64,000 nucleotides of DNA from Pristiophorus japonicus (taxonomy: Eukaryota). The stretch covers positions 146,692,001 to 146,756,000 of the forward strand of contig NC_091984.1 in the NCBI RefSeq assembly GCF_044704955.1, written 5' to 3'. Of this stretch, positions 21,528-59,717 are shown in pieces; within the stretch, counting starts at the first letter, position 1, and each line of letters starts with the position of its first letter. A program made the translations under genes and the position numbers. The notes under the pieces were generated by a model. It did no database searches. It had not been told where the DNA came from and saw nothing but the letters and a program-made list of their open reading frames with translations.

Positions 21528-21863
21528 TTAAGAATTAGTGTTGCTAGCCTCGAATGGTTAATCGGCATCCAGGAGTTCATTAACCCAACTCTCCGTTATC
21601 AGATGTGAATTATCCCCACACTGAAACACCCACAGTGACACAGACCCACACAGAGACACCCATCTGCACCCACCCCATCCCCCAACACCCCAACCCACCT
21701 CCCCGACCCACACACCCATACCCCTCCCCCACCCACACACACACACCCTCCCACACCCACTAACATGCACTCGCACACGCACTTAAGCGCACTCTCACGG
21801 AAACACCCACAGAGACACACACACTAATATACACCTATTAAACATCCTTCTCCTCCCTTTCAG

Positions 21864-22192
21864 GCCGAGGGAAGACACCACCCACGCTGACCCTGCTGCC
21901 CCCCTCCCCGGAGGAGGTCACGACCAAGGGCACTGCCACCCTGGTGTGCCTCGCCGATCACTTCTACCCCGATGCGGTGGAGGTGGAGTGGAAGAAGGAC
22001 GGGGCGACCATTTCGGCCGGGGTCCAGACCAGCGACTACCTGCGAGCTTCGGACAACACCTACAGTGTCAGCAGCCTGCTGACCCTCTCTGGCTCCGATT
22101 GGGAGTCCAACGCCAGCTTCTCCTGCAGCCTCACCCACGAGAGCCTCTCCTCTCCCCTCAGCAAGGGAGTCAGGAGAGCAGAATGTGCGTAG
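21864..22192 (+). CDS. IGKC: Immunoglobulin light-chain constant exon, kappa type (copy 1), open frame
   Basis: Polypyrimidine-CAG acceptor, phase-1 start. RGKTPPTLTLLPPSPEEVTTKGTATLVCLADHFYPDAVEVEWKKDG..YSVSSLLTL..FSCSLTHESLSSPLSKGVRRAECA*. C1-set Cys/Trp/Cys plus penultimate Cys. Closely resembles nurse shark NS4 as recalled. Confidence 0.95.
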
Positions 22193-35522: not shown

Positions 35523-35752
35523 CACCTTACAATCAAACGCATTTATATTTCGATTAAACTTACCAAACGAGGCAAAGAAGATTAAGAATTAGTGTTGCTC
35601 GCCTCTCATGGTTAATCACCAGCCAGGAGTTCATTAACCCAGCTCTCCGTTATCAGATGTGAATTATCCCCACACGGAAACACCCACAGTGACACACACA
35701 CACACACACAGACTAATATACACCTATTAAACATCCTTCTCCTCCCTTTCAG

Positions 35753-36081
35753 GCCGAGGGAAGACACCACCCACGCTGACCCTGCTGCCCCCCTCCCCGG
35801 AGGAGGTCACTACCAAGGACACTGCCACCCTGGTGTGCCTCGCCGATCACTTCTACCCCGATGCGGTGGAGGTGGAGTGGAAGAAGGACGGGGCGACCAT
35901 TTCGGCCGGGGTTCAGACCAGCGACTACCTGCGAGCTTCGGACAACACCTACAGTGTCAGCAGCCTGCTGATCCTCTCTGGCTCCGACTGGGAGTCCAAC
36001 GCCAGCTTCTCCTGCAGCCTCACCCACGAGAGCCTCTCCTCTCCCCTCAGCAAGGGCATCAGGAGAGCAGAATGTGCGTAG
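35753..36081 (+). CDS. IGKC: Immunoglobulin light-chain constant exon, kappa type (copy 2), open frame
   Basis: Same acceptor and frame as copy 1. Three substitutions (KG>KD, LLTL>LLIL, GV>GI). Confidence 0.95.
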
Positions 36082-49295: not shown

Positions 49296-50823
49296 TGTAG
49301 GGGGTTTTTGCTCTGTCCAATTACGGGGGTCTTTGGTGGCTGTTGGTGTATTGGGCCTCTCTGTCCCTTCTAGGGGATGTCCCGCAGCTTAGGGCTGGCT
49401 GACCACTAAACTGGCGGTTTCGAAGCACCCTAGCACCCCTATCTGGTTCTAAGCTCAGAACTTTTAGTGGATTATGAGCTTCCACAAGGGAAAACAAAAC
49501 ACTCAGAGACAAGTGGTCCTTGGAACAAAAAAAACGGTTAAGTCCAATTTATTAACCACGCTAAGTTTCCAACAAGGTCAAACTTCATCGAAACACATAT
49601 CTGATACACACTTATAAACTGTGAAAATCTTTGGGAAGAAACGGACACAACGAAAACCTTACACAATTTTATCTTTACAAGACAGTTCTAACATCACCCC
49701 CACCCCCCTTTGTACCTGACTGACCTAGGCTGACAGTTGGGAAAAGAAACCCCAGGATAATACTTATGATCCCTTTTGACAGTTATCTTTTTAGCCTTAG
49801 GATGGTTGGTTTAAGGGGTAGCCGGAGTGAATGTTGCCTCTCCCAGTTACTTCGGTCTCCGATTCTTCAACTGGTTGGCCTCGGAGCGTTGTTCGGTGTG
49901 CGGCTCGACTTCTTGAGACGATGTTGGGCCTCTCGGTAGTTGGGTTCTATATTCTGCACACAAGTCGAGTCCAGGGCCCGTACGAGGGTATGTTTCACAG
50001 CCGGTAACAGTCTGTCTCCGTCCTCTCTCGGTTTCTGTCTTGTTGCTCCTCGACTCCTTCTCCGACTGCCCCAGCTGCTTTCTCTCTGTTGTTTGTCTGT
50101 GGTTCTATAGGTCCTACTCCTCCAGCTACTTTTCCTACTATATTCAAACTGGGCCCGGTCGTGCCTATTGGTTGAGGATTTCCCCGCTTCAGGCCCGACT
50201 TGACCCTTGATTGGCCTGCCAGAATGCACTTTTCCCCCATTGGCCAGTGCCTCTGTCTCACTTTTGAGCTAGACTCCACAATGTAATCAGAAGATGTCAC
50301 AGGTAGGTGTGAGGATCGGGGTATTGTTTCAGTGCACATTGGTGCCTCAACATCTGTTGGTCTATTGTAACGTCCCGGGAGTCAATTACCACAGTGATCT
50401 CCAGACTATTGTCCATTGTCCATATTAATTAGGTAGATAATGGTCCACATTCATAATTTGATTATGGGTGAGTCATATTTTCAAACTGGGCCGGGTAGTC
50501 CATTGGTTGAGGATTTTCCCGCTTCAGGCCGGACTCGACCCCTGATTGGCCTGCAGAAGGCACTTTTCCCCCATTGACCAGTGCCTCTGTCTCGCTTTTG
50601 AGCTAGACTCCACAATGTCTGTATCCGCCCACACGTTTCCCAGCCTGCCTGGTTTGAGGGTTTGACTTGGCCAAAAATGTAAATTTAAAATACATTGAGT
50701 TAAAACAACAGTGCACTACTTGGCCAAAAATGTTCATTTTAAAATGTATAGGATGATCCCTTTTAGTTTACTTGTCGTTAGGGTGTTCCAATAAAATGCG
50801 GCCGTGGATTTTCGAACCTTACA
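49296..50823 (-). mobile_element. 3' LTR (1528 bp) of retrovirus B
   Basis: PPT GATGGGGGAG, then TGTAAG..CTACA. The end abuts Harbinger sequence exactly. Internal ~140-bp duplication (50143-50284, 50480-50618) with several CCAAT boxes. Confidence 0.9.
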
Positions 50824-51314
50824 CTCCCCCATCTTGACACACCCGGATATAGACGGAATGTGTCAAAAGGTTTGCAAGAAAATCCTAGAGCTCCCCAAGT
50901 GTCAGCCATCCCCATAATTACTCTAAACTATAGACTCGCATAAACCAATACGTACAAACAATATTTCTATCCATAATTGGTGCACTACTCACGCTCCTTT
51001 ACAGGTAAACTACGAACAAGGCACCATTTTTGCTTTTAATTACAGAGTTAAGTACATAATTATGGCACATCATGTCGCGTGTTCCTTGCGTTCCTTGAAA
51101 GATTATTCCGCCATCACAGCATATTGAACAGATGTATTTACACTGTGCAAATGTCTATCTGTGCTAACTAAGTCCTTATTGTGTCCTGTCATGGATAGTT
51201 TTAACAGCTTACATAGTCGACAGTGCCAGTCTGTTTCCAGGTACGAGTGTTACGGTAAACCAGAATGTTCCCTTTTGTTTAAACCACCTGGAAACAAAAT
51301 GGAATTCTAGTGTG

Positions 51315-53630
51315 TTAGACTGGGCTGTCCTTCTGTTGTTTCTGGAATATTTTAAGATAACTCCGTGCTGTTCGGGCTCTTTTGGATCTGCAGGCATTGA
51401 TGATGAGATATAGGACAATGACCAGTTGTACAATCACCAGTGTGTGGGAGGCCATGCGAAGCCAAACCGGGATATCTACTCTCATATCCCATTCCCACCA
51501 TGCTGGTGACTGTATGTCCGCGATTTCGAGGGCTATGTCTTTGGTCTTTTGCTGTAGGGTGTAATAATGTTTTTGGCTGAGATCCACTGCCTTCAACAGG
51601 GCGGTGAGTTTCTCAGGTGGCAAGGGTATGGGGTACCCAAAATGGGCAACATAGTTCTGCAGATAACTCGCGTTATACTGTACCATGAGGTGGACCGTGG
51701 AGGGTTCTGGGATTGGGATGATCCTTTCCTGGGCCACTTGAACTTCTGCCCTAGGTTTAAAACAAAAACTGTTGTCCGGAATATCACACCATTTACTTGG
51801 GCCGTGTCTATACTGGTGGGCAGTCGTGGCGATACAACCCGCTCTGTGGCCTCCCGAAGGCGTTCAAGTGCTGGGGACACAGGATGACCTGTGCTCCCCG
51901 GCTACGGCAGCCAGATAGGTCTGTACCCATGATTGCGCGCTCCCACACAATGACATCGGGTGGGATCGTTGTGAAACGGACGTGTACCTCCCCCGCGAAT
52001 GACTCCAGTGTTCTCCACACGGTACATGGGTGCTGGCTTGGCGGATGGCCCCATCACTAGCATTCGCACAACGGCACCCATAATAGTGTGGTTAGATTTC
52101 CCACAGTCAACAGGGAAAGGATAGGCTTCCGACACCACGCGGAGTTGGCAGGGACTGAGGGTGCTGCTGTATGGGTGTAGTGCCTCCAGGTGCTGGTTGC
52201 TGATCCAGGACGGGACCCGACCTTGCCTAAGGTCTTCCAAATTGCTCCGTCCCTCTCCCAGCAACCAGGCCCCATAGAGTACACATACCTCGTTCTGTGC
52301 AGCCTGATCCGAGGCCAGCCGGTCCTCCTTGATCAAGGTGTTTATTGTCCGGGCGTGAGCCTCTAGCTGGGAAATAATTTCTTTCAGATGCACCGTCATA
52401 GCCACCCCCTCGTGAAGTGTGGAACCCAACACATTATTCTCTTTCCCGAGGATGCTGCGCAGCTGTGACTTTAACCCATTGATCTGTAGGGCCAGCTGCA
52501 CATCATTCGGCTGTTCATGACCGATGCCCCTGTGTTAAATCCGGTGAAAACGTCATTCATGACCCCCCTGCGTTGTCTGCCCCGCTCGGTTGTATCTTCT
52601 TGTCTATACAGGTCCGCCACATTGACATCCCCAAAGTCCAGCTCGTAGAAGCTCCTGAACATTTCCTTCAGGAGAGCTTGGTACAACAACTCGGTTTCTC
52701 TGGGGCAGAAGGCGGGTAGGCGAACTTCTGTCAGGTTTAGAATTACTGAAGCAACTGCATAGTGTACTCCCTGGTATACTAACTTATCTGTCGGTACTAA
52801 CACTAACCCATTCCCAGGTCCCCTAGTGGTGGGCGGACATCCATAACTGTCAATGGGCTTGGGCGTGGGCAGGGCTTTCTTCACCTGAGCCAGCAGCTCG
52901 GTGGCGTTGACTGGTACCCGGAAGTGAGGGAACACACAGTCTTCCCTGCTGCGATCCCATTCCATCCCCTTCCCCGAGTCCTTCCATCATCTGGCAAAGG
53001 CAATGGACAAACCCGCTGGGCATACCTGGGCCGACTCCCATAGGCATGTATAGATCCCCTAATCATAGGCCCACCATTTCTCCCAACACACAGTGACCCC
53101 CCCGGTGACCCCATGATTGCCCAGTAGGTGTCATTGCTCAGATGTTCCCAGTCTGAGCTGCTGTCCTCGATGTCCGCGCTCAGTTTCCTGAGCCACCACC
53201 AGCGTCCGAAAGGTATGTCCCCAACACACGTTAAACACACTCTCCTTCCCTCTGTCACCCTAACCTGGGACATGGCCATCTCGATTTCGGGGTAAGGGAT
53301 GGAGGCCTCCCCATAGGTAAAACTCTAGTGGCTCGAATACCGGGTGGAATTCGAACCCAACCACCCAGGCCATCTCCTTTGTGGAAGTAGGTGGCCTGGT
53401 CTTCTGCCTCCATGATCTCCTTCTCCTGTGGTCACGATTGGCACCCTGCCCCCGGAGCACCCGTATGTCAAAGACATCTCGATGTCGAGTTTCTGTCCGG
53501 TGCAGGTCCCCAGGTAGGTAAATAACATCGTAACAGTCCGGAGCAGCTTCTGGAACACAAGATTGAACACAGTCTTGCCTGAGACTTCTTCAGGCACGAC
53601 TGGAGTAACATCACAAAATAAAAACACCAT
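51315..53630 (-). pseudogene. env: env of retrovirus B: signal peptide, Ig-like domain, F2-like segment, furin site, F1-like subunit, TM
   Basis: RGRQRR|GVMNDVFTGFNTGASV, heptad LALQINGLKSQLRSIL, Cys-rich region, HRB, PAWW, TM. Contains stops, frameshifts and an ~100-bp deletion near 51838. Confidence 0.85.
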
Positions 53631-53882: not shown

Positions 53883-56800
53883 TTACCGCACAGAGTCTAC
53901 CACTCTTGTGCTTCTTTTCTCGTTTGACTCTGGGATGGGCAGGAAAGGATACGGGGAACAAGGCATCCTAGGCTGCCCCACTCTGGAACTATGCCTAACC
54001 AGGGGCGCGTAGTCCCATGTTACGGGCTGCACCCCTTGGTCCTCCCACTGGTCTATCCCTTCCTCTATCTGCCCTGTCGTTATACTGCACAGGACTCCCT
54101 TCTCCTGTGCTAAGTCCCTTTCCTGCCTATCAGGCTGTGCCACTTCACTCTGCTGTGTGATGGTCCTACTGTGGCAGTGGACTATTCCGGGTTGTGGGGC
54201 TTCGGGTCCGGGGTTGACCTCTGTTACAGCCTCCACATCCACCGGAATGTCCTTTGCCTCCCGTGGGGTTTCTTTACCTGTGGGAGCCTTCCTTTCTCCT
54301 GCCCTAGTAGGGTTGAACCGCTTGCATTGGTTTATGTGGTACCACTTTACTCGGCGGGGTAATTGGACCACATAAACCATAGGGCTTGCCTTGTCCACGA
54401 TACTGTCGGGCCCCATGTACAGTGGCTCGAACACCCCCACCCTGGCGAAGTTGCGTACCATGACCTGGTCGCCTATTTCCCAGTCGTGGTGGCTCCAGGG
54501 TTCCAGCAGCAGCTTGTTACTAAAGTGTTGTCTTCCCATGTTGGTGGCTGCCTGCCAGTAAATCTACTGCAGCTGGTCCAGCAGATTCCTAGCCAAGCGG
54601 TCTCGGTTAGCTTCCTGAAGCTGTCCTTCGGTGAGACCCGGCACCAATGTGTGTACTGGGGTCCTCATGGGTCTCCCAGTCATCAGCTCGTGGGGTGAAT
54701 ACCCTGTGCTTTTCGACTGACTGGCCCGGATCCCCATAAGGACCAGTGGCAAGACCTCTACCCATCTGTTGGGTGAATTCCCTGTCTCCTTGCAGAGCCT
54801 TTTCTTGATGGTGCGCTTGAGATGTTCCACAGGGCCTGAGGACTGGGGGTTGTACACCACATGCCACTGTGCTTTAATCCCCAGTACCATTAAAGTGGCC
54901 TGCATCACCTGGCCGGTGAAGTGGCTTCCCTGGTCGGACCCCACAAACTGCGGCAGACCCCACCTTGAGAACACTTCCCTGACCGGGATCTTGGACGTCC
55001 CCAATGCAGTAGCTGTTCGGCAAGGGAAGGCTTCCACCCATTTGGAGAATACACCCAACAGCACTAGACAGTACTTGTACCCCCCACCCCGGGCAGTTGG
55101 TAGGGGCCCTATGTCGTCAATTTGGATCGACTGCCATGGTCCCTCTACCCGCTTGATGTGTCCCATGGATGCCTTTCTCTTCTGGGGGTCTGGGTTGTTG
55201 GCTGAACACACCAGACAGGCTGCGCAGAAATCACGGACGTTGTTCCGGAGATCTGGCCACCATGCTGCCTGTTCCACCTTCTGCCAGGTGGACTCTAGCC
55301 CGGGGTGTCCCGCACCTGGACCCTCATGGGCCAGTTGTAGGAACTCCCGCTGGTGTTGTGCTGGAACCATCCACTTATCCCCTTTAAACAGCATTCCTTC
55401 CTTGACAGCTATATCTGCGGCACTGTATGGGCTCTCTGCCTTTCCTCCACTTAGAATGGTTGCTATGGCAGCCTTGAGGACGGGGTCCGGGGCCACTGCC
55501 ACCCCTGCACTCCCTGTTTCCCTGGCTTGCCTCTAGCTGCTATCACCCTGCCTTTCTCATACGGGTCCCAGAAGTGACCTGTCTTGGCTCCTTCTCTGGC
55601 CAGGAGGTCCGCCCTCTGGTTACCCTCTGCCCTGGGCTCTGTCTTAGAATGTGCCTTAACCTTGTGGATGTAGACGTCCCTATTGTTCTCTCGGGCTGCC
55701 ACTATCCTTACTAGCAGGGGTTTGGTTACCAGGGGCTTCCCATCTGCGGATGTGTACCCCCTGCATGACCAAATATCCAGACACTCTGTACACGAATTGC
55801 AAGTAAACATACTGTCCGAACAAATCGTGTACGGTGTGGGGAATTCCTCGGGGTGTGTCACTATGTACATCACCACTGACGGTTCAGCCTGCTGGGTGCT
55901 CAGGGTGCTGGGGAGTTTAAGCACCAAGGCTATGCCTGCCTCAGGGTCCCAAACTCTGCAACCCGTGAGTCTTGTACCCGCGGACACCGAACTGGATCCA
56001 TCGACGTAGATCTCGTGGCCTGTGGGGTGTACCCCTGCCCAAAATCCAAAGTCGGTGTCCCAAACCCATTCTACTGAGCATCTGTGTGGCTCCCCTGCAT
56101 AAATGAGGTTAGCTGCGAGCCTGGGCTCGCAGAGGTCCCTGACCCTAATGGCCATTTGGGAGAGGAGGAGGGTCCAGCGAGTGATCCTGGCACTGCTGAC
56201 TGTTCCATCCTTTATTCTCCCATCTAACAACATCTGGGTCGGGGTGTGATGGGTGAGGAGTGTGATAGGGGATACTCCTGTGAAAACCTGTGCTCTTTTC
56301 ACAGCCCAGTGAGTGGCTAACAGATGCCTCTCACAGTTGGAGAACCCCTTATCCACCTCTGCAAAGACGCTAGAGGAGTACACCACTGGTCTCAGCTGTC
56401 CGTGCCTTTCCTGTAAAAGCACTGCACTCAGACTGTCCCCGCTGCCTGCTACTTCTAAATAGAAATCCTTTCCCCCATCAATAGCCCCCAGTGCAGGTGC
56501 CTTCTGCAGGTTCTGTTTCAACTGAAGAAATACAGCTTGGCAGCCTTGATCCCACTCCCACTCGACCCCTTTGTGTAGGAGCCTGAGTAGAGGGGCTGCG
56601 ATTGCTGCATAATCTTCTATGAAATCTCAACAGTAGCCTGTGATCCCTAAAAAAGATCTGACTCCGGATACGGTGGTCGGTACCTGGAGTTCCTGCATGG
56701 CTTGCCTTCGGGCCTCATCTGGACCTCGTTCCCCTGCTCTGAGTGTTAGACCCAGGAATTTTACTTCCTTTAACCCTATCTGGGCCTTCTTGGGGTTGAC

Positions 56801-57893
56801 CTTAAAACCCCCCTCCTTGAGCACAGCCAACAGTTCTGCCAGAAGGGGATCATGCTCTTTACTGTTGTCAGTGAAAAGGAGCAGGTCGTCCACATACTGC
56901 ACCAACTGTTGCGGCTGGCTGAAGCTCTTTAAACAGTTCGCCATGCACTGGTGGAAGATGCTGGGACTGTTGTGAAATCCCTGAGGGAGGCAGCTCCAAG
57001 TATATTGCTGTTCCTTAAAGGTGAAAGCAAACTTGTACTGGTCCTCTCTCCTCACAGGGATAGACCAGAAGCCATTTGAAATGTCCGGACTGTGAAGGTG
57101 GTTGCAGATGCAGGGATTTCCCTGATCAGGTCTGCCACTGCTGCCACTGTAGGAGCAGAAGCCGGGAGATTTCTGTTGAGCACCCGATAGTCCACGGTGG
57201 CCCTCCACGAGTTGTCCGGTTTTTTGACCGGCCACAGGGGAGAGTTCACGTGCATGGCTCTGGGTCTCAGCACAACCTGCTGCACCAGTGAGCTCAGTGA
57301 CATTTCCAAGTCGGCTTCTGCCTCTCTCGGGACGTTATACTGTCTCTGAGGTCAGGACATGGGATCCCCATCTATCCTGACCTTTACTCCGGTGACTCTC
57401 CCACAGTCGTGTTTGTGGTAGCAAATGCTGCGAGACTGGCTCGCACATAGGCCCTGTACTCTGCCAGGGTGTCCCTGACAAGCTCTAAGTCATAACCCCC
57501 TTTTAGCTTCACAGTACACAGAGCCCCTTTGTCTTGTATCCTTTCTATAAGCATGACCTTGTTGTTTGTACCTGGGTCCATTGTTCCCCATAAACAGTGA
57601 TTTCGCAAATCCAGCTGGATCTGGTGGGCTATAATGAAGTCGGCCCCCAATATACCTTTGTTAGCCTGCTCCCACCTTATCAGGACGCACTTCCATTTGG
57701 TGGTCAGTGCTCCCAATTTAAGGGTCAGTGGGATCGAAAAATACCCTGTTCTTTCGTTCCCCTTGAAGCCGACTAGCTCGTAGGGCACACCGCTGGACAG
57801 GGGCGAGGAGGCCGGGTCCTCTGTGTAGACCCACGGTCTTCCCCACGAGTCATAGTCCAGCGGACACAGGTAGGCAGGCTTGGTGAGTACTAG
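53883..57893 (-). pseudogene. pol: pol of retrovirus B: protease (active-site segment deleted), RT, tether RNase H, RNase H, integrase
   Basis: GILGADF; LPQGFHNSP..QYVDD; tether LLQERHGQLRPVVYSS; RNase H IYVDGSS..QQAE..SDS..KVKAH..GNQRAD; IN HHCC, IQIDDIGPL, SDQGSHF, SSGPVE, GPY/F-like tail. Confidence 0.92.
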
Positions 57894-59717
57894 TCATGGT
57901 TCCTGCCGTATGGGAGCTGTGGGGATCTCTTTACCCACCGCTACATTGATACGGCCGGGACCGGTCAGCAGCTGCCTGAGAGTTTCAAACACTGTTGTGG
58001 CACCCGCTTTCTCATTACCCGGTTTCACCTCCGTGGGTGTTTTTACTTCTTTCACGCGGTAGGGGTTGGCCCTGCAGTTGTTGCGGCAGTGGCCAGGCTT
58101 ACTGCACTCGTAACACTCCCCCCTTCTATCGGGAGGATGTCCACCCTCCTGATGCCACTCCCTCTTGGGGGTTTGGTTGGGTTGCACCACATGCACCCGG
58201 CCTTTTACTGTTTTCTCTGGCTTCCCCTCTTCCTCCCCATCCCCCGCCGTGTGGCAGCCAGTCTGCCTATCACGATGGCTTCGGTGAGATTGGGGTCTCC
58301 CGGGATGAACCAGAGATCTACCCTTTCCTTGACACTGGGCAGGCTGTTCGCAATTATGGTGCGAAACCATGCTTCCCTTTGTTCCGCTGTAAGGTTGTTT
58401 CTGACAAGCAGGCCACCACATGCTGTGCTGTAGACCAGCCATAACCTTTCCATGTATATCTGTGGGGCTTCTCCTGCTAACTGGCGTGTTTTCGCTATCC
58501 TTTCAAAGGGACTCCCTTCGTTCCACCCCATGGCCTCTAGGATAGCCCTTTGTAGTGCTGCGAGGATGCTTTATCCCTCGCGACAATCTGGGGGAAGAGC
58601 CTGGTAGATCTTCCCGTCAATGGAAAAAAGGAGCACTTTAACTGCTTCCGTATTATCACATGTGTTCATGTCCACTGCCTGCACTATCTCCAGGAAGTGA
58701 GCATATGGATCTCCCAGTCTAGTGAGCTTTGGGATATATGACACCATGGCCTTTAATGCAGCAACTGAATGCGGAATGATAAACTCGCTATCCAGCGGTC
58801 CTTGGGTTTGTGCACCTTGTGGGGGACCGTGCTTCCTCTGCACAGCCGGGCACATCAGTCCCGCGGCAGACACCACCACTGGCTCCCCCCTTTCTTCAGC
58901 CTCAACTGCCTCTGAATTTAAATCTGCAGACTCGACCCTTTCTGCGGGTGTCCCATACCCCTTTGGCTGGACCGGCTCTACCTGGCCGATCCCATACCCT
59001 GTGGGTTTCTTGGGCTGCACCCTCTGATCCTCCGTAAGGCCTGCCGGACACACTACCAGCGCCTCAGGAGGCGGTCGACTGTCCTCTGCTGCCGGATCCT
59101 CTTCCACTCCCCGATACCCTGTCTCGTTGGTTGCCTCCCTGGGCGCCAACAGACAGACTGTCCCCTTTACCTGGGACAGAACCTGGAGGAGGGATTGGAT
59201 CTGCTTATGGTAGGGTGCATGATTTGCCTTCTCATGGCTTATTTCGATGTTAACTTTTAGGCTGTGCGCAAATCCCTTAATTGGACCTGAAGCACGAGGA
59301 CCTGCTGGACATAAGCTGCACTCTGCTCCCTGTACTTCTGTTCCATAGCCCGTGACACCGTAAGCTGACTCTGCAGGTACTCCTGATGGTTGCGGAACGT
59401 TTCCTCTAACCGTGCCCTTCTATTCCTTTCCTCTATTAACTCTTCTGTGACCTTAGTACCCGCGGCCTCCCTGGCCACTGAGGTGATAACAGCATCCTTT
59501 AATTCCTCCTGTAATTTTCCTACCTGAAGGTCTAACTCCCGAACCTGCCTAGTTCAACATATCAGCCAAATTGCCTTTTCTACCCTTTTGTTATGTGTCG
59601 GCCCTTCTGTCCACTGGACTGCCGCGTCCACTGGACGTGGTGCCCTGGTCAGCTTCTGAACCCATGTTTTGGTAAAATTGACCTTGGAGAAAACATATTC
59701 CGTGATTCTCTCCTCCA
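57894..59717 (-). pseudogene. gag: gag of retrovirus B with N-terminal coiled coil and one CCHC knuckle
   Basis: Long E/R/Q heptad region 59257-59540, CA-like region RQLAGEAPQIYMERL, CYECSKPGHCRNNC. Confidence 0.85.

Follow-up and report, generated by a model that had tools for sequence, protein, structure and literature searches.

Does the broken env gene on the minus strand of a 64,000-nt stretch of the Pristiophorus japonicus genome (contig NC_091984.1; the whole stretch is called the window hereafter) encode a genuine immunoglobulin (Ig) domain ahead of its fusogen, as a preliminary description of the sequence had proposed, and what could such a domain do for a retrovirus? Our preferred reading, to which we assign a probability of roughly 0.6, is that a conserved, in-frame module of ~200 residues with a predicted V/I-type Ig fold precedes a likely F-type fusogen and is a built-in receptor-binding domain.

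The window copy and its place in the genome

The env gene belongs to an ancient, high-copy endogenous retrovirus, of which the window holds a broken gag-pol-env unit on the minus strand with the following parts.

57894..59660, minus strand: gag-like region, broken, with a coiled coil, a capsid-like part and a zinc knuckle (limits approximate)
53883..57893, minus strand: pro-pol, broken, with reverse transcriptase (RT), tether (RT_RNaseH_2), RNase H and integrase (H2C2, rve, SH3-like), assigned by Pfam
53496..53546, minus strand: probable env signal peptide, ending in TCTG, aligned to the signal-like stretch of unbroken copies (start approximate and inferred)
52882..53495, minus strand: Env N-terminal module of ~200 aa with eight conserved Cys, predicted to be all-beta with an Ig core
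53325-27 (TAG), 53097-53103 (frameshift in a G run), 53059-61 (TAG) and 52987-89 (TGA), minus strand: breaks in the N-terminal module
53190..53264, minus strand: predicted Ig strands A', B and C (VRVTEG, CLTC, WWWL)
53044..53100, minus strand: predicted Ig strands E (GVTVCW) and F (DxGIYTC)
52882..52914, minus strand: candidate Ig strand G (PVNATELL), ~40 residues past strand F, from one low-confidence model with matches reaching model residue 202
52840..52881, minus strand: Pro/Thr-rich linker, the least constrained region (dN/dS 0.24)
52579..52839, minus strand: F2-like segment, opening with CPxxxxGPGNG
52567..52578, minus strand: furin site RQRR
51315..52566, minus strand: F1/TM-like subunit with fusion peptide, HR1, Cys-rich beta region, HR2 and transmembrane helix (51443-51399)
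near 52510, 51960-51990 and 51810-51840, minus strand: more frameshifts in the F1/TM-like subunit
49983..50826, minus strand: probable 3' LTR, beginning right after a purine tract, inferred from a 76-90% match to an LTR-like stretch right of the window

Pfam recognized an RT, a tether-type RNase H (RT_RNaseH_2), a second RNase H and an integrase in the element, and a protease domain was detected in a related copy. The 5' side of the gag-like region is truncated by LINE insertions, and a search for a 5' LTR within the 64-kb window found none. Just right of the window, an LTR-like stretch (L063:2864-3628) is 76-90% identical to 49983-50826 in the same orientation; it is a solo LTR in its own right or else a 5' LTR that has been displaced. 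On the plus strand, positions 20-980 hold the 3' portion of another env copy, which belongs to the family of the element described here but is more diverged (protein identity 48-62%).

A six-frame reading of the minus strand placed the motifs where the preliminary description had located them, namely MVFLF at 53630, the TAG at 53325-27, VRVTEG at 53264-47, CLTCVG from 53237, RWWWL at 53204-190, AYD*GIYTC at 53070-53044, the TGA at 52987-89, the start of F2 at 52839 and RQRR at 52578. Two assignments had to be corrected. The frame break had been put near 53075, but it falls within the run of G at about 53097-53103. GSLCV, previously taken for the E strand, is therefore read out of frame, and the E strand is instead GVTVCW (53100-83), which unbroken copies show as well. 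The proposed env start at 53630 does coincide with an ATG, which is however probably upstream of the true start, since a signal-like stretch common to the subfamilies opens ~80 nt past 53630, behind an AG acceptor-like site. With its several breaks, the window's own env copy is broken and inert.

The window lies in an Ig light-chain region, with two near-identical Ig light-chain constant exons on the plus strand (21860-22190 and 35749-36080) and no V exon by motif scan of the window. These two exons invite the explanation that the Env domain was captured once from the surrounding locus or simply confused with it. This is refuted by the occurrence of module copies genome-wide and in a skate and by the absence of resemblance to the two C exons, against which the module scored 0.7 and 1.0 bits, values reached by 11/200 and 9/200 shuffles, respectively, in line with the original remark that the domain does not resemble them.

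Among 5834 candidates in the species' own genome, at least 150 env copies were scored, which is a floor and not a copy number. Three unbroken natural env frames of 805, 796 and 757 codons lead from the signal peptide through CLTC..W and DQGIYLC to the furin site and the heptads, and two of them extend to the transmembrane helix. In such copies the B- and F-strand motifs thus share one frame with the fusogen, which is what had been anticipated for intact copies. To quantify this arrangement, we used three differently biased samples of loci. Among the 30 best loci from the genome search with the window query, 5 carry both motifs in one frame (4 stop-free across the domain); the same holds for 16 of 20 loci chosen for long frames (11 stop-free) and for 23 of 30 loci retrieved with a skate query (16 stop-free), which amounts to 31 stop-free Ig domains over the three samples. 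The first sample favours copies broken at the same G run because its query included the window's out-of-frame tail. This G run (53097-53103) is located at the D-E turn, and its length differs among copies of the window's subfamily, which marks it as a slippage hot spot and accounts for the frequent frameshift at this position. The B and F cysteines, ~61 codons apart in the window copy as initially noted, are separated by 61 residues in 36/45 and by 62 in 6/45 same-frame copies elsewhere (42/45 together), within the range of ~55-75 used here for V/I-set domains of the Ig superfamily (IgSF).

The same module was found in the skate proteins P0002 and P0008 (46-50% identity). P0002, annotated as skate LOC144608216, has the Ig-like module together with F2, fusion peptide and TM but is missing most of the F1 middle; it may be a copy with an internal deletion or a spliced one. 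Given the many genome copies, the motifs in one frame and the stop-free domains, the module is not a chance reading and is almost certainly a real in-frame part of Env.

Between subfamilies, dN/dS was 0.12 in the Ig part and 0.14 in the sequence ahead of it, whereas the linker gave 0.24 and the F core 0.07 (rough NG86 estimates from 16 copies of four subfamilies, in which pairs are non-independent and 27/93 and 64/93 pairs are saturated). The N-terminal module is under purifying selection, and selection of this strength fits a structural role as much as receptor binding. According to one rival explanation, which we consider unlikely, the module acts structurally, as a cap or clamp that stabilizes the prefusion F trimer or aids its folding, and receptor binding resides elsewhere. 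Such a role would agree with the eight conserved Cys and the many invariant Trp of the module (the B and F Cys are conserved by row selection, and five of the positions tested are invariant because of how rows were chosen), with a constraint near that of the F core and with large predicted insertions that could pack onto the F head, but it sits poorly with the weakly constrained Pro/Thr-rich linker between module and core and with relatives that keep the same F core behind a different module or none.

Predicted fold of the module and type of the fusogen

The N-terminal module very likely adopts a V/I-type Ig fold, a prediction backed by four concordant lines of evidence that are each moderate and singly not decisive. 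The B-strand Cys, the C-strand Trp and D-x-G-x-Y-x-C all lie in one frame with canonical order and spacing, A' strand included. The profile search suggested in the preliminary description did return Pfam Ig_3, which matched 18/32 rows at E <= 0.1 (best E 4.9e-5), but the match stayed below the curated cut-off (23.6 bits vs 30). In the ESM Atlas, the top matches were V/I-set clusters with values of 0.90-0.92, a range to be read against shuffled proteins, which attain 0.9 in 4-10 of 100 cases; the best 10 named matches all belonged to the Ig clan (10/10). Sequence matches in the PDB were to CRTAM and obscurin (best E 0.09-0.14).

An AlphaFold model of the module built from 32 natural rows is all-beta with a mean pLDDT of 54.5, compared with 34-41 for four other models. 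With this model, Foldseek retrieved Ig-type chains only (best E 0.012); at E <= 0.001 it retrieved none, and a search of BFVD likewise gave nothing at E <= 0.001. VIA-align was run on 48,161 chains, and judged by title or chain range all of its best 50 rows were V/I-set domains (a further run agreed), with 78-100 residues aligned, an rmsd of mostly 2-3 A and Z of 6.2-7.5, although Z below 8 may reflect a common beta arrangement and is not proof of a fold. In 49 of these 50 rows, the ~90 aligned residues span model residues 15-202. The model suggests an A strand near GCSG, a G strand at PVNATEL and large A-A' and F-G insertions, so that the predicted Ig domain would cover the whole ~200-residue module and carry extra disulfides, as far as one low-confidence model can tell. 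The expectation of an Ig-like fold agrees with the overall predicted fold, with V/I-set domains as best matches to a low-confidence model (pLDDT 54.5). The nearest host IgSF domain, which had also been sought, did not emerge: sequence searches found no donor gene and, at E ~0.1, the best PDB sequence matches were again CRTAM and obscurin. Capture from a host is assumed from the fold alone, because the donor gene was not found.

Behind the signal peptide, the order of elements is module, Pro/Thr linker, F2-like segment, furin site, fusion peptide, heptads and TM. In length and arrangement the protein fits a class I F-type fusogen, with furin site, fusion peptide, HR1, a long Cys-rich beta region, HR2 and TM all present. 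A profile of 29 fusogen cores had the foamy-virus Env 8rm1 as best PDB match (E 0.0016 over 140 positions) and no direct match to a paramyxo- or pneumovirus F in the PDB, and PF00523 was absent from the 25 of 37 families listed. One weak Env relative matched Baculo_F (E 0.0011), and a single-sequence AlphaFold model of the whole Env reached a pLDDT of 33. The F-type assignment of the core is graded as likely only, because a direct match to paramyxovirus F is absent. The central proposal of the preliminary description, an in-frame IgSF-like domain N-terminal to an F-like fusogen, thus finds support in the unbroken copies, Pfam, the Atlas and the structure matches.

Virus affiliation and the N-terminal slot of related Envs

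The virus carrying this Env is likely a relative of snakehead retrovirus (SnRV-like, clade Huo), judging from its RT sequence. In a hand count over a 46-residue RT core, 34/46 positions are identical to SnRV, 24/46 to Loki-Lch, 24/46 to FFV, 23/46 to HERV-L and ~18/46 to MuLV. Coelacanth and frogs provide the nearest RTs in the database, and the nearest Pols carry the automatic name NYNRIN-like. In a tree without a labelled SnRV row, Pol falls together with those of coelacanth and frogs (SH-aLRT 94). According to the accessible parts of the respective papers, coelacanth and frogs are rich in SnRV-like endogenous retroviruses (PMC4977317), and an SnRV-like lineage is known in the elephant shark (PMC4422223).

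Two other affiliations found no support. Pol bit scores are about equidistant (MLV 234, Ty3 223, foamy 211), and membership in the Spumaretrovirinae does not agree with a Pol for which foamy RT ranks below both Ty3 and MLV. Membership in the lokiretroviruses is disfavoured by the RT, which reads PQGFH where the Loki RTs shown have PFGY or PFGL and which shares only the 24/46 core positions with Loki-Lch, and by Env, which has ~200 extra N-terminal residues vs none in 22/22 published Loki N-termini. The element does have a tether and RNase H, but these are common to all retroviruses and hence not diagnostic of lokiretroviruses.

A full HMMER scan yielded 44 Env relatives, and those named come from sharks, a skate and frogs (30/44 looked up); SnRV was not among the 30 of 44 looked up. 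The motif opening the F2-like segment is common to all long Env relatives, and the region ahead of it differs. The frog Env P0021 (Pelodytes ibericus) has a V-like domain that ends in a J-like WGxG G strand, and its PDB matches were antibody heavy chains in 45/45 cases (best E 0.005), in a database rich in antibodies. P0031 carries a V-set-like domain (E 0.045) that lacks the usual cysteines and had no PDB match at E <= 1, while its sister P0039 has no N-terminal domain at all and keeps the F core. As this protein and the published Loki Envs have no module, F-type Envs can do without one. In P0011 and P0023, the same slot is occupied by a Cys-rich domain without Ig match. An Ig-like domain in P0013 and L051 is doubtful: the UniRef name of P0013, heavy-chain matches at E 0.054 and motifs recognized by eye speak for it, but the Atlas (0.75), profile comparison and a PDB profile gave it no support.

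Compared directly, the module scored 5.2 bits against the frog domain (0/200 shuffles) and 3.9 bits against P0013 (6/200), and the rest did no better than shuffles; pairwise and profile comparison found no significant similarity among the different N-terminal modules. Because of this lack of mutual similarity, one ancient capture and several captures are both compatible with the data. In the fusogen tree, the module types are interspersed. That the shark module could be a beta-sandwich born in the virus, with Ig-like motifs acquired by convergence, would be consistent with the absence of similarity to other modules and with single scores that are all moderate. We nevertheless regard this origin as improbable in view of the canonical order and spacing of A', B-Cys, C-Trp and D-x-G-x-Y-x-C, the concordance of Pfam, language model and structure search, and the frog relative with its J-like G strand and matches to heavy-chain V regions only.

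Two further groups of env sequences were observed in the survey. L051:6351-8708 on the minus strand (G000:C18:30167351-30169708) is an unbroken env-like frame of 786 codons from a related, otherwise decayed family. It is the sole full-length stop-free match among 120 (the others are ~60-80% identical), and no other frame of at least 250 aa was seen within its own 10 kb or in the downstream sequence, while the upstream side contains just fragments of a different element. Its product is 45% identical to an intact Chiloscyllium protein (P0013). From its sequence and setting, L051 is a candidate co-opted env gene. A word-index protein search with this solo env returned no relative; the method is insensitive here, since it missed P0013. 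Furthermore, L053 and L061, whose Envs resemble P0023 and P0011, represent a second young family with the same kind of fusogen core and a Cys-rich N-terminal domain without Ig match. Pol of this family is MLV-like (MLV 405 bits vs Ty3 198 and foamy 205) and groups with a fish Pol bearing MLVIN_C, so this family appears to combine an F-type Env with a class-I-like backbone. We tentatively consider that these sequences from sharks, skates and frogs could form a clade of F-type Envs not described so far, in which an exchangeable N-terminal receptor slot may have repeatedly taken up V-type Ig domains, some of them resembling antigen-receptor V regions with a CDR3-like F-G insertion, and in which the env cassette may have moved between SnRV-like and class-I-like backbones.

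Proposed role and comparison with known Envs

Attachment is probably the main role of the module. This view derives from its location at the N-terminal end of the surface subunit (SU), on a flexible linker, from the variability of the slot and from the analogy to the receptor-binding domains (RBDs) of gamma-type Envs. After cleavage at the furin site, the module would remain part of the surface subunit and sit at the trimer tip, where it could bind a host surface protein, with IgSF-type adhesion as the obvious model. Binding would then license refolding of the F core, and one protein would do the jobs that paramyxoviruses split between H/HN/G and F.

The module could instead act as an immune decoy or as a mimic of a host ligand that binds an inhibitory receptor or masks the fusogen instead of driving entry. 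Poxviruses and herpesviruses have IgSF proteins that act as decoys or mimics, and CRTAM was among the weak sequence matches of the module. Captured IgV domains can also keep surfaces for host ligands, as indicated by a SIRP-like Env domain that retains up to 12/19 CD47-contact residues in the accessible part of bioRxiv 10.1101/2024.03.17.585361. For the shark module, however, no close host counterpart was found and the domain is heavily remodelled, and we hold a pure decoy function to be rather improbable, although decoy and attachment roles are not mutually exclusive.

The preferred reading of the module as a built-in receptor-binding domain can be set against known Envs, as described in the accessible portions of the papers cited here and in the next two paragraphs. 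In gamma-type Envs (bioRxiv 10.1101/2024.03.17.585361), an Ig-fold RBD-C is present in MLV, FeLV and EnvP(b)1 and a SIRP-like IgV domain in Env-Dbi. The shark Env shares with them an IgV-like domain at the SU N-terminus, expanded loops and an exchangeable RBD slot, and the SIRP-like class has the canonical B-F disulfide. The shark fusogen is by contrast long and F/foamy-like and differs from the gamma-type TM, and unlike in Env-Dbi, where the SIRP donor is obvious, the shark module has no recognizable donor.

Lokiretroviruses (PMC7947760) resemble the shark element in their gag-pol-env organization, tether and RNase H, in an Env with signal, RxKR, fusion peptide, coiled coil and TM, and in a similar GPxxGxxL motif (compared by eye) that opens the F2-like segment. 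All 22 of 22 published Loki Envs with an N-terminus, however, run from the signal peptide straight into this motif. None are reported from Chondrichthyes in the same source, with 3 Orectolobiformes screened and 0 found. Foamy Env (PMC11468914) also is a retroviral Env with an F-like core and an RBD within SU, a parallel that presupposes the attachment role inferred for the shark module; its RBD of ~330 residues has a fold that its authors describe as previously unidentified and is held by two flanking linkers inside SU, whereas the shark Ig-like module of ~200 residues is appended N-terminally and the RT is not foamy-like. The likeness to SnRV and SnRV-like endogenous retroviruses (clade Huo; PMC6001957, PMC4422223, PMC4977317) is drawn from the RT (34/46 core identities), not from Env. 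Errantivirus and baculovirus F-type Envs (PMC13524379) offer the parallel of an F-type fusogen on an LTR element, but errantiviruses are Ty3/gypsy elements of invertebrates.

The accessible text of the errantivirus Env paper (PMC13524379) makes no mention of immunoglobulin or Ig-like domains, and that of PMC7947760, PMC9040795, PMC12440569, PMC13709493, PMC12813294, PMC4977317 and bioRxiv 10.64898/2026.05.06.723177 makes none of an immunoglobulin domain on Env. Full-text literature searches for this layout found no Ig domain on an F-type Env. The earlier impression that the architecture is without precedent therefore needs qualification: N-terminal Ig-fold domains are known from gamma-type Envs, and what is new, as far as we found in print, is the combination of an Ig domain with an F-type Env.

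The F-type fusogens of paramyxoviruses rely on a separate attachment protein. If our reading is true, an Ig module fused ahead of an F-type fusogen would be a third solution for attachment besides such a separate protein and the inserted non-Ig domain of foamy viruses. It would also parallel the Ig-fold RBDs of gamma-type Envs and would mean that two unrelated Env classes captured RBDs convergently. As the module is small and soluble, its fold and its partner would be testable without any virus. F-like Envs are known, in the accessible parts of the respective sources, in lokiretroviruses (PMC7947760), foamy viruses (PMC11468914) and errantiviruses (PMC13524379). Our data would place F-type Envs outside the loki- and foamy viruses as well, in SnRV-like and class-I-like retroviruses from frogs and cartilaginous fish, and this wider range bears on the origin and the swapping of retroviral Envs.
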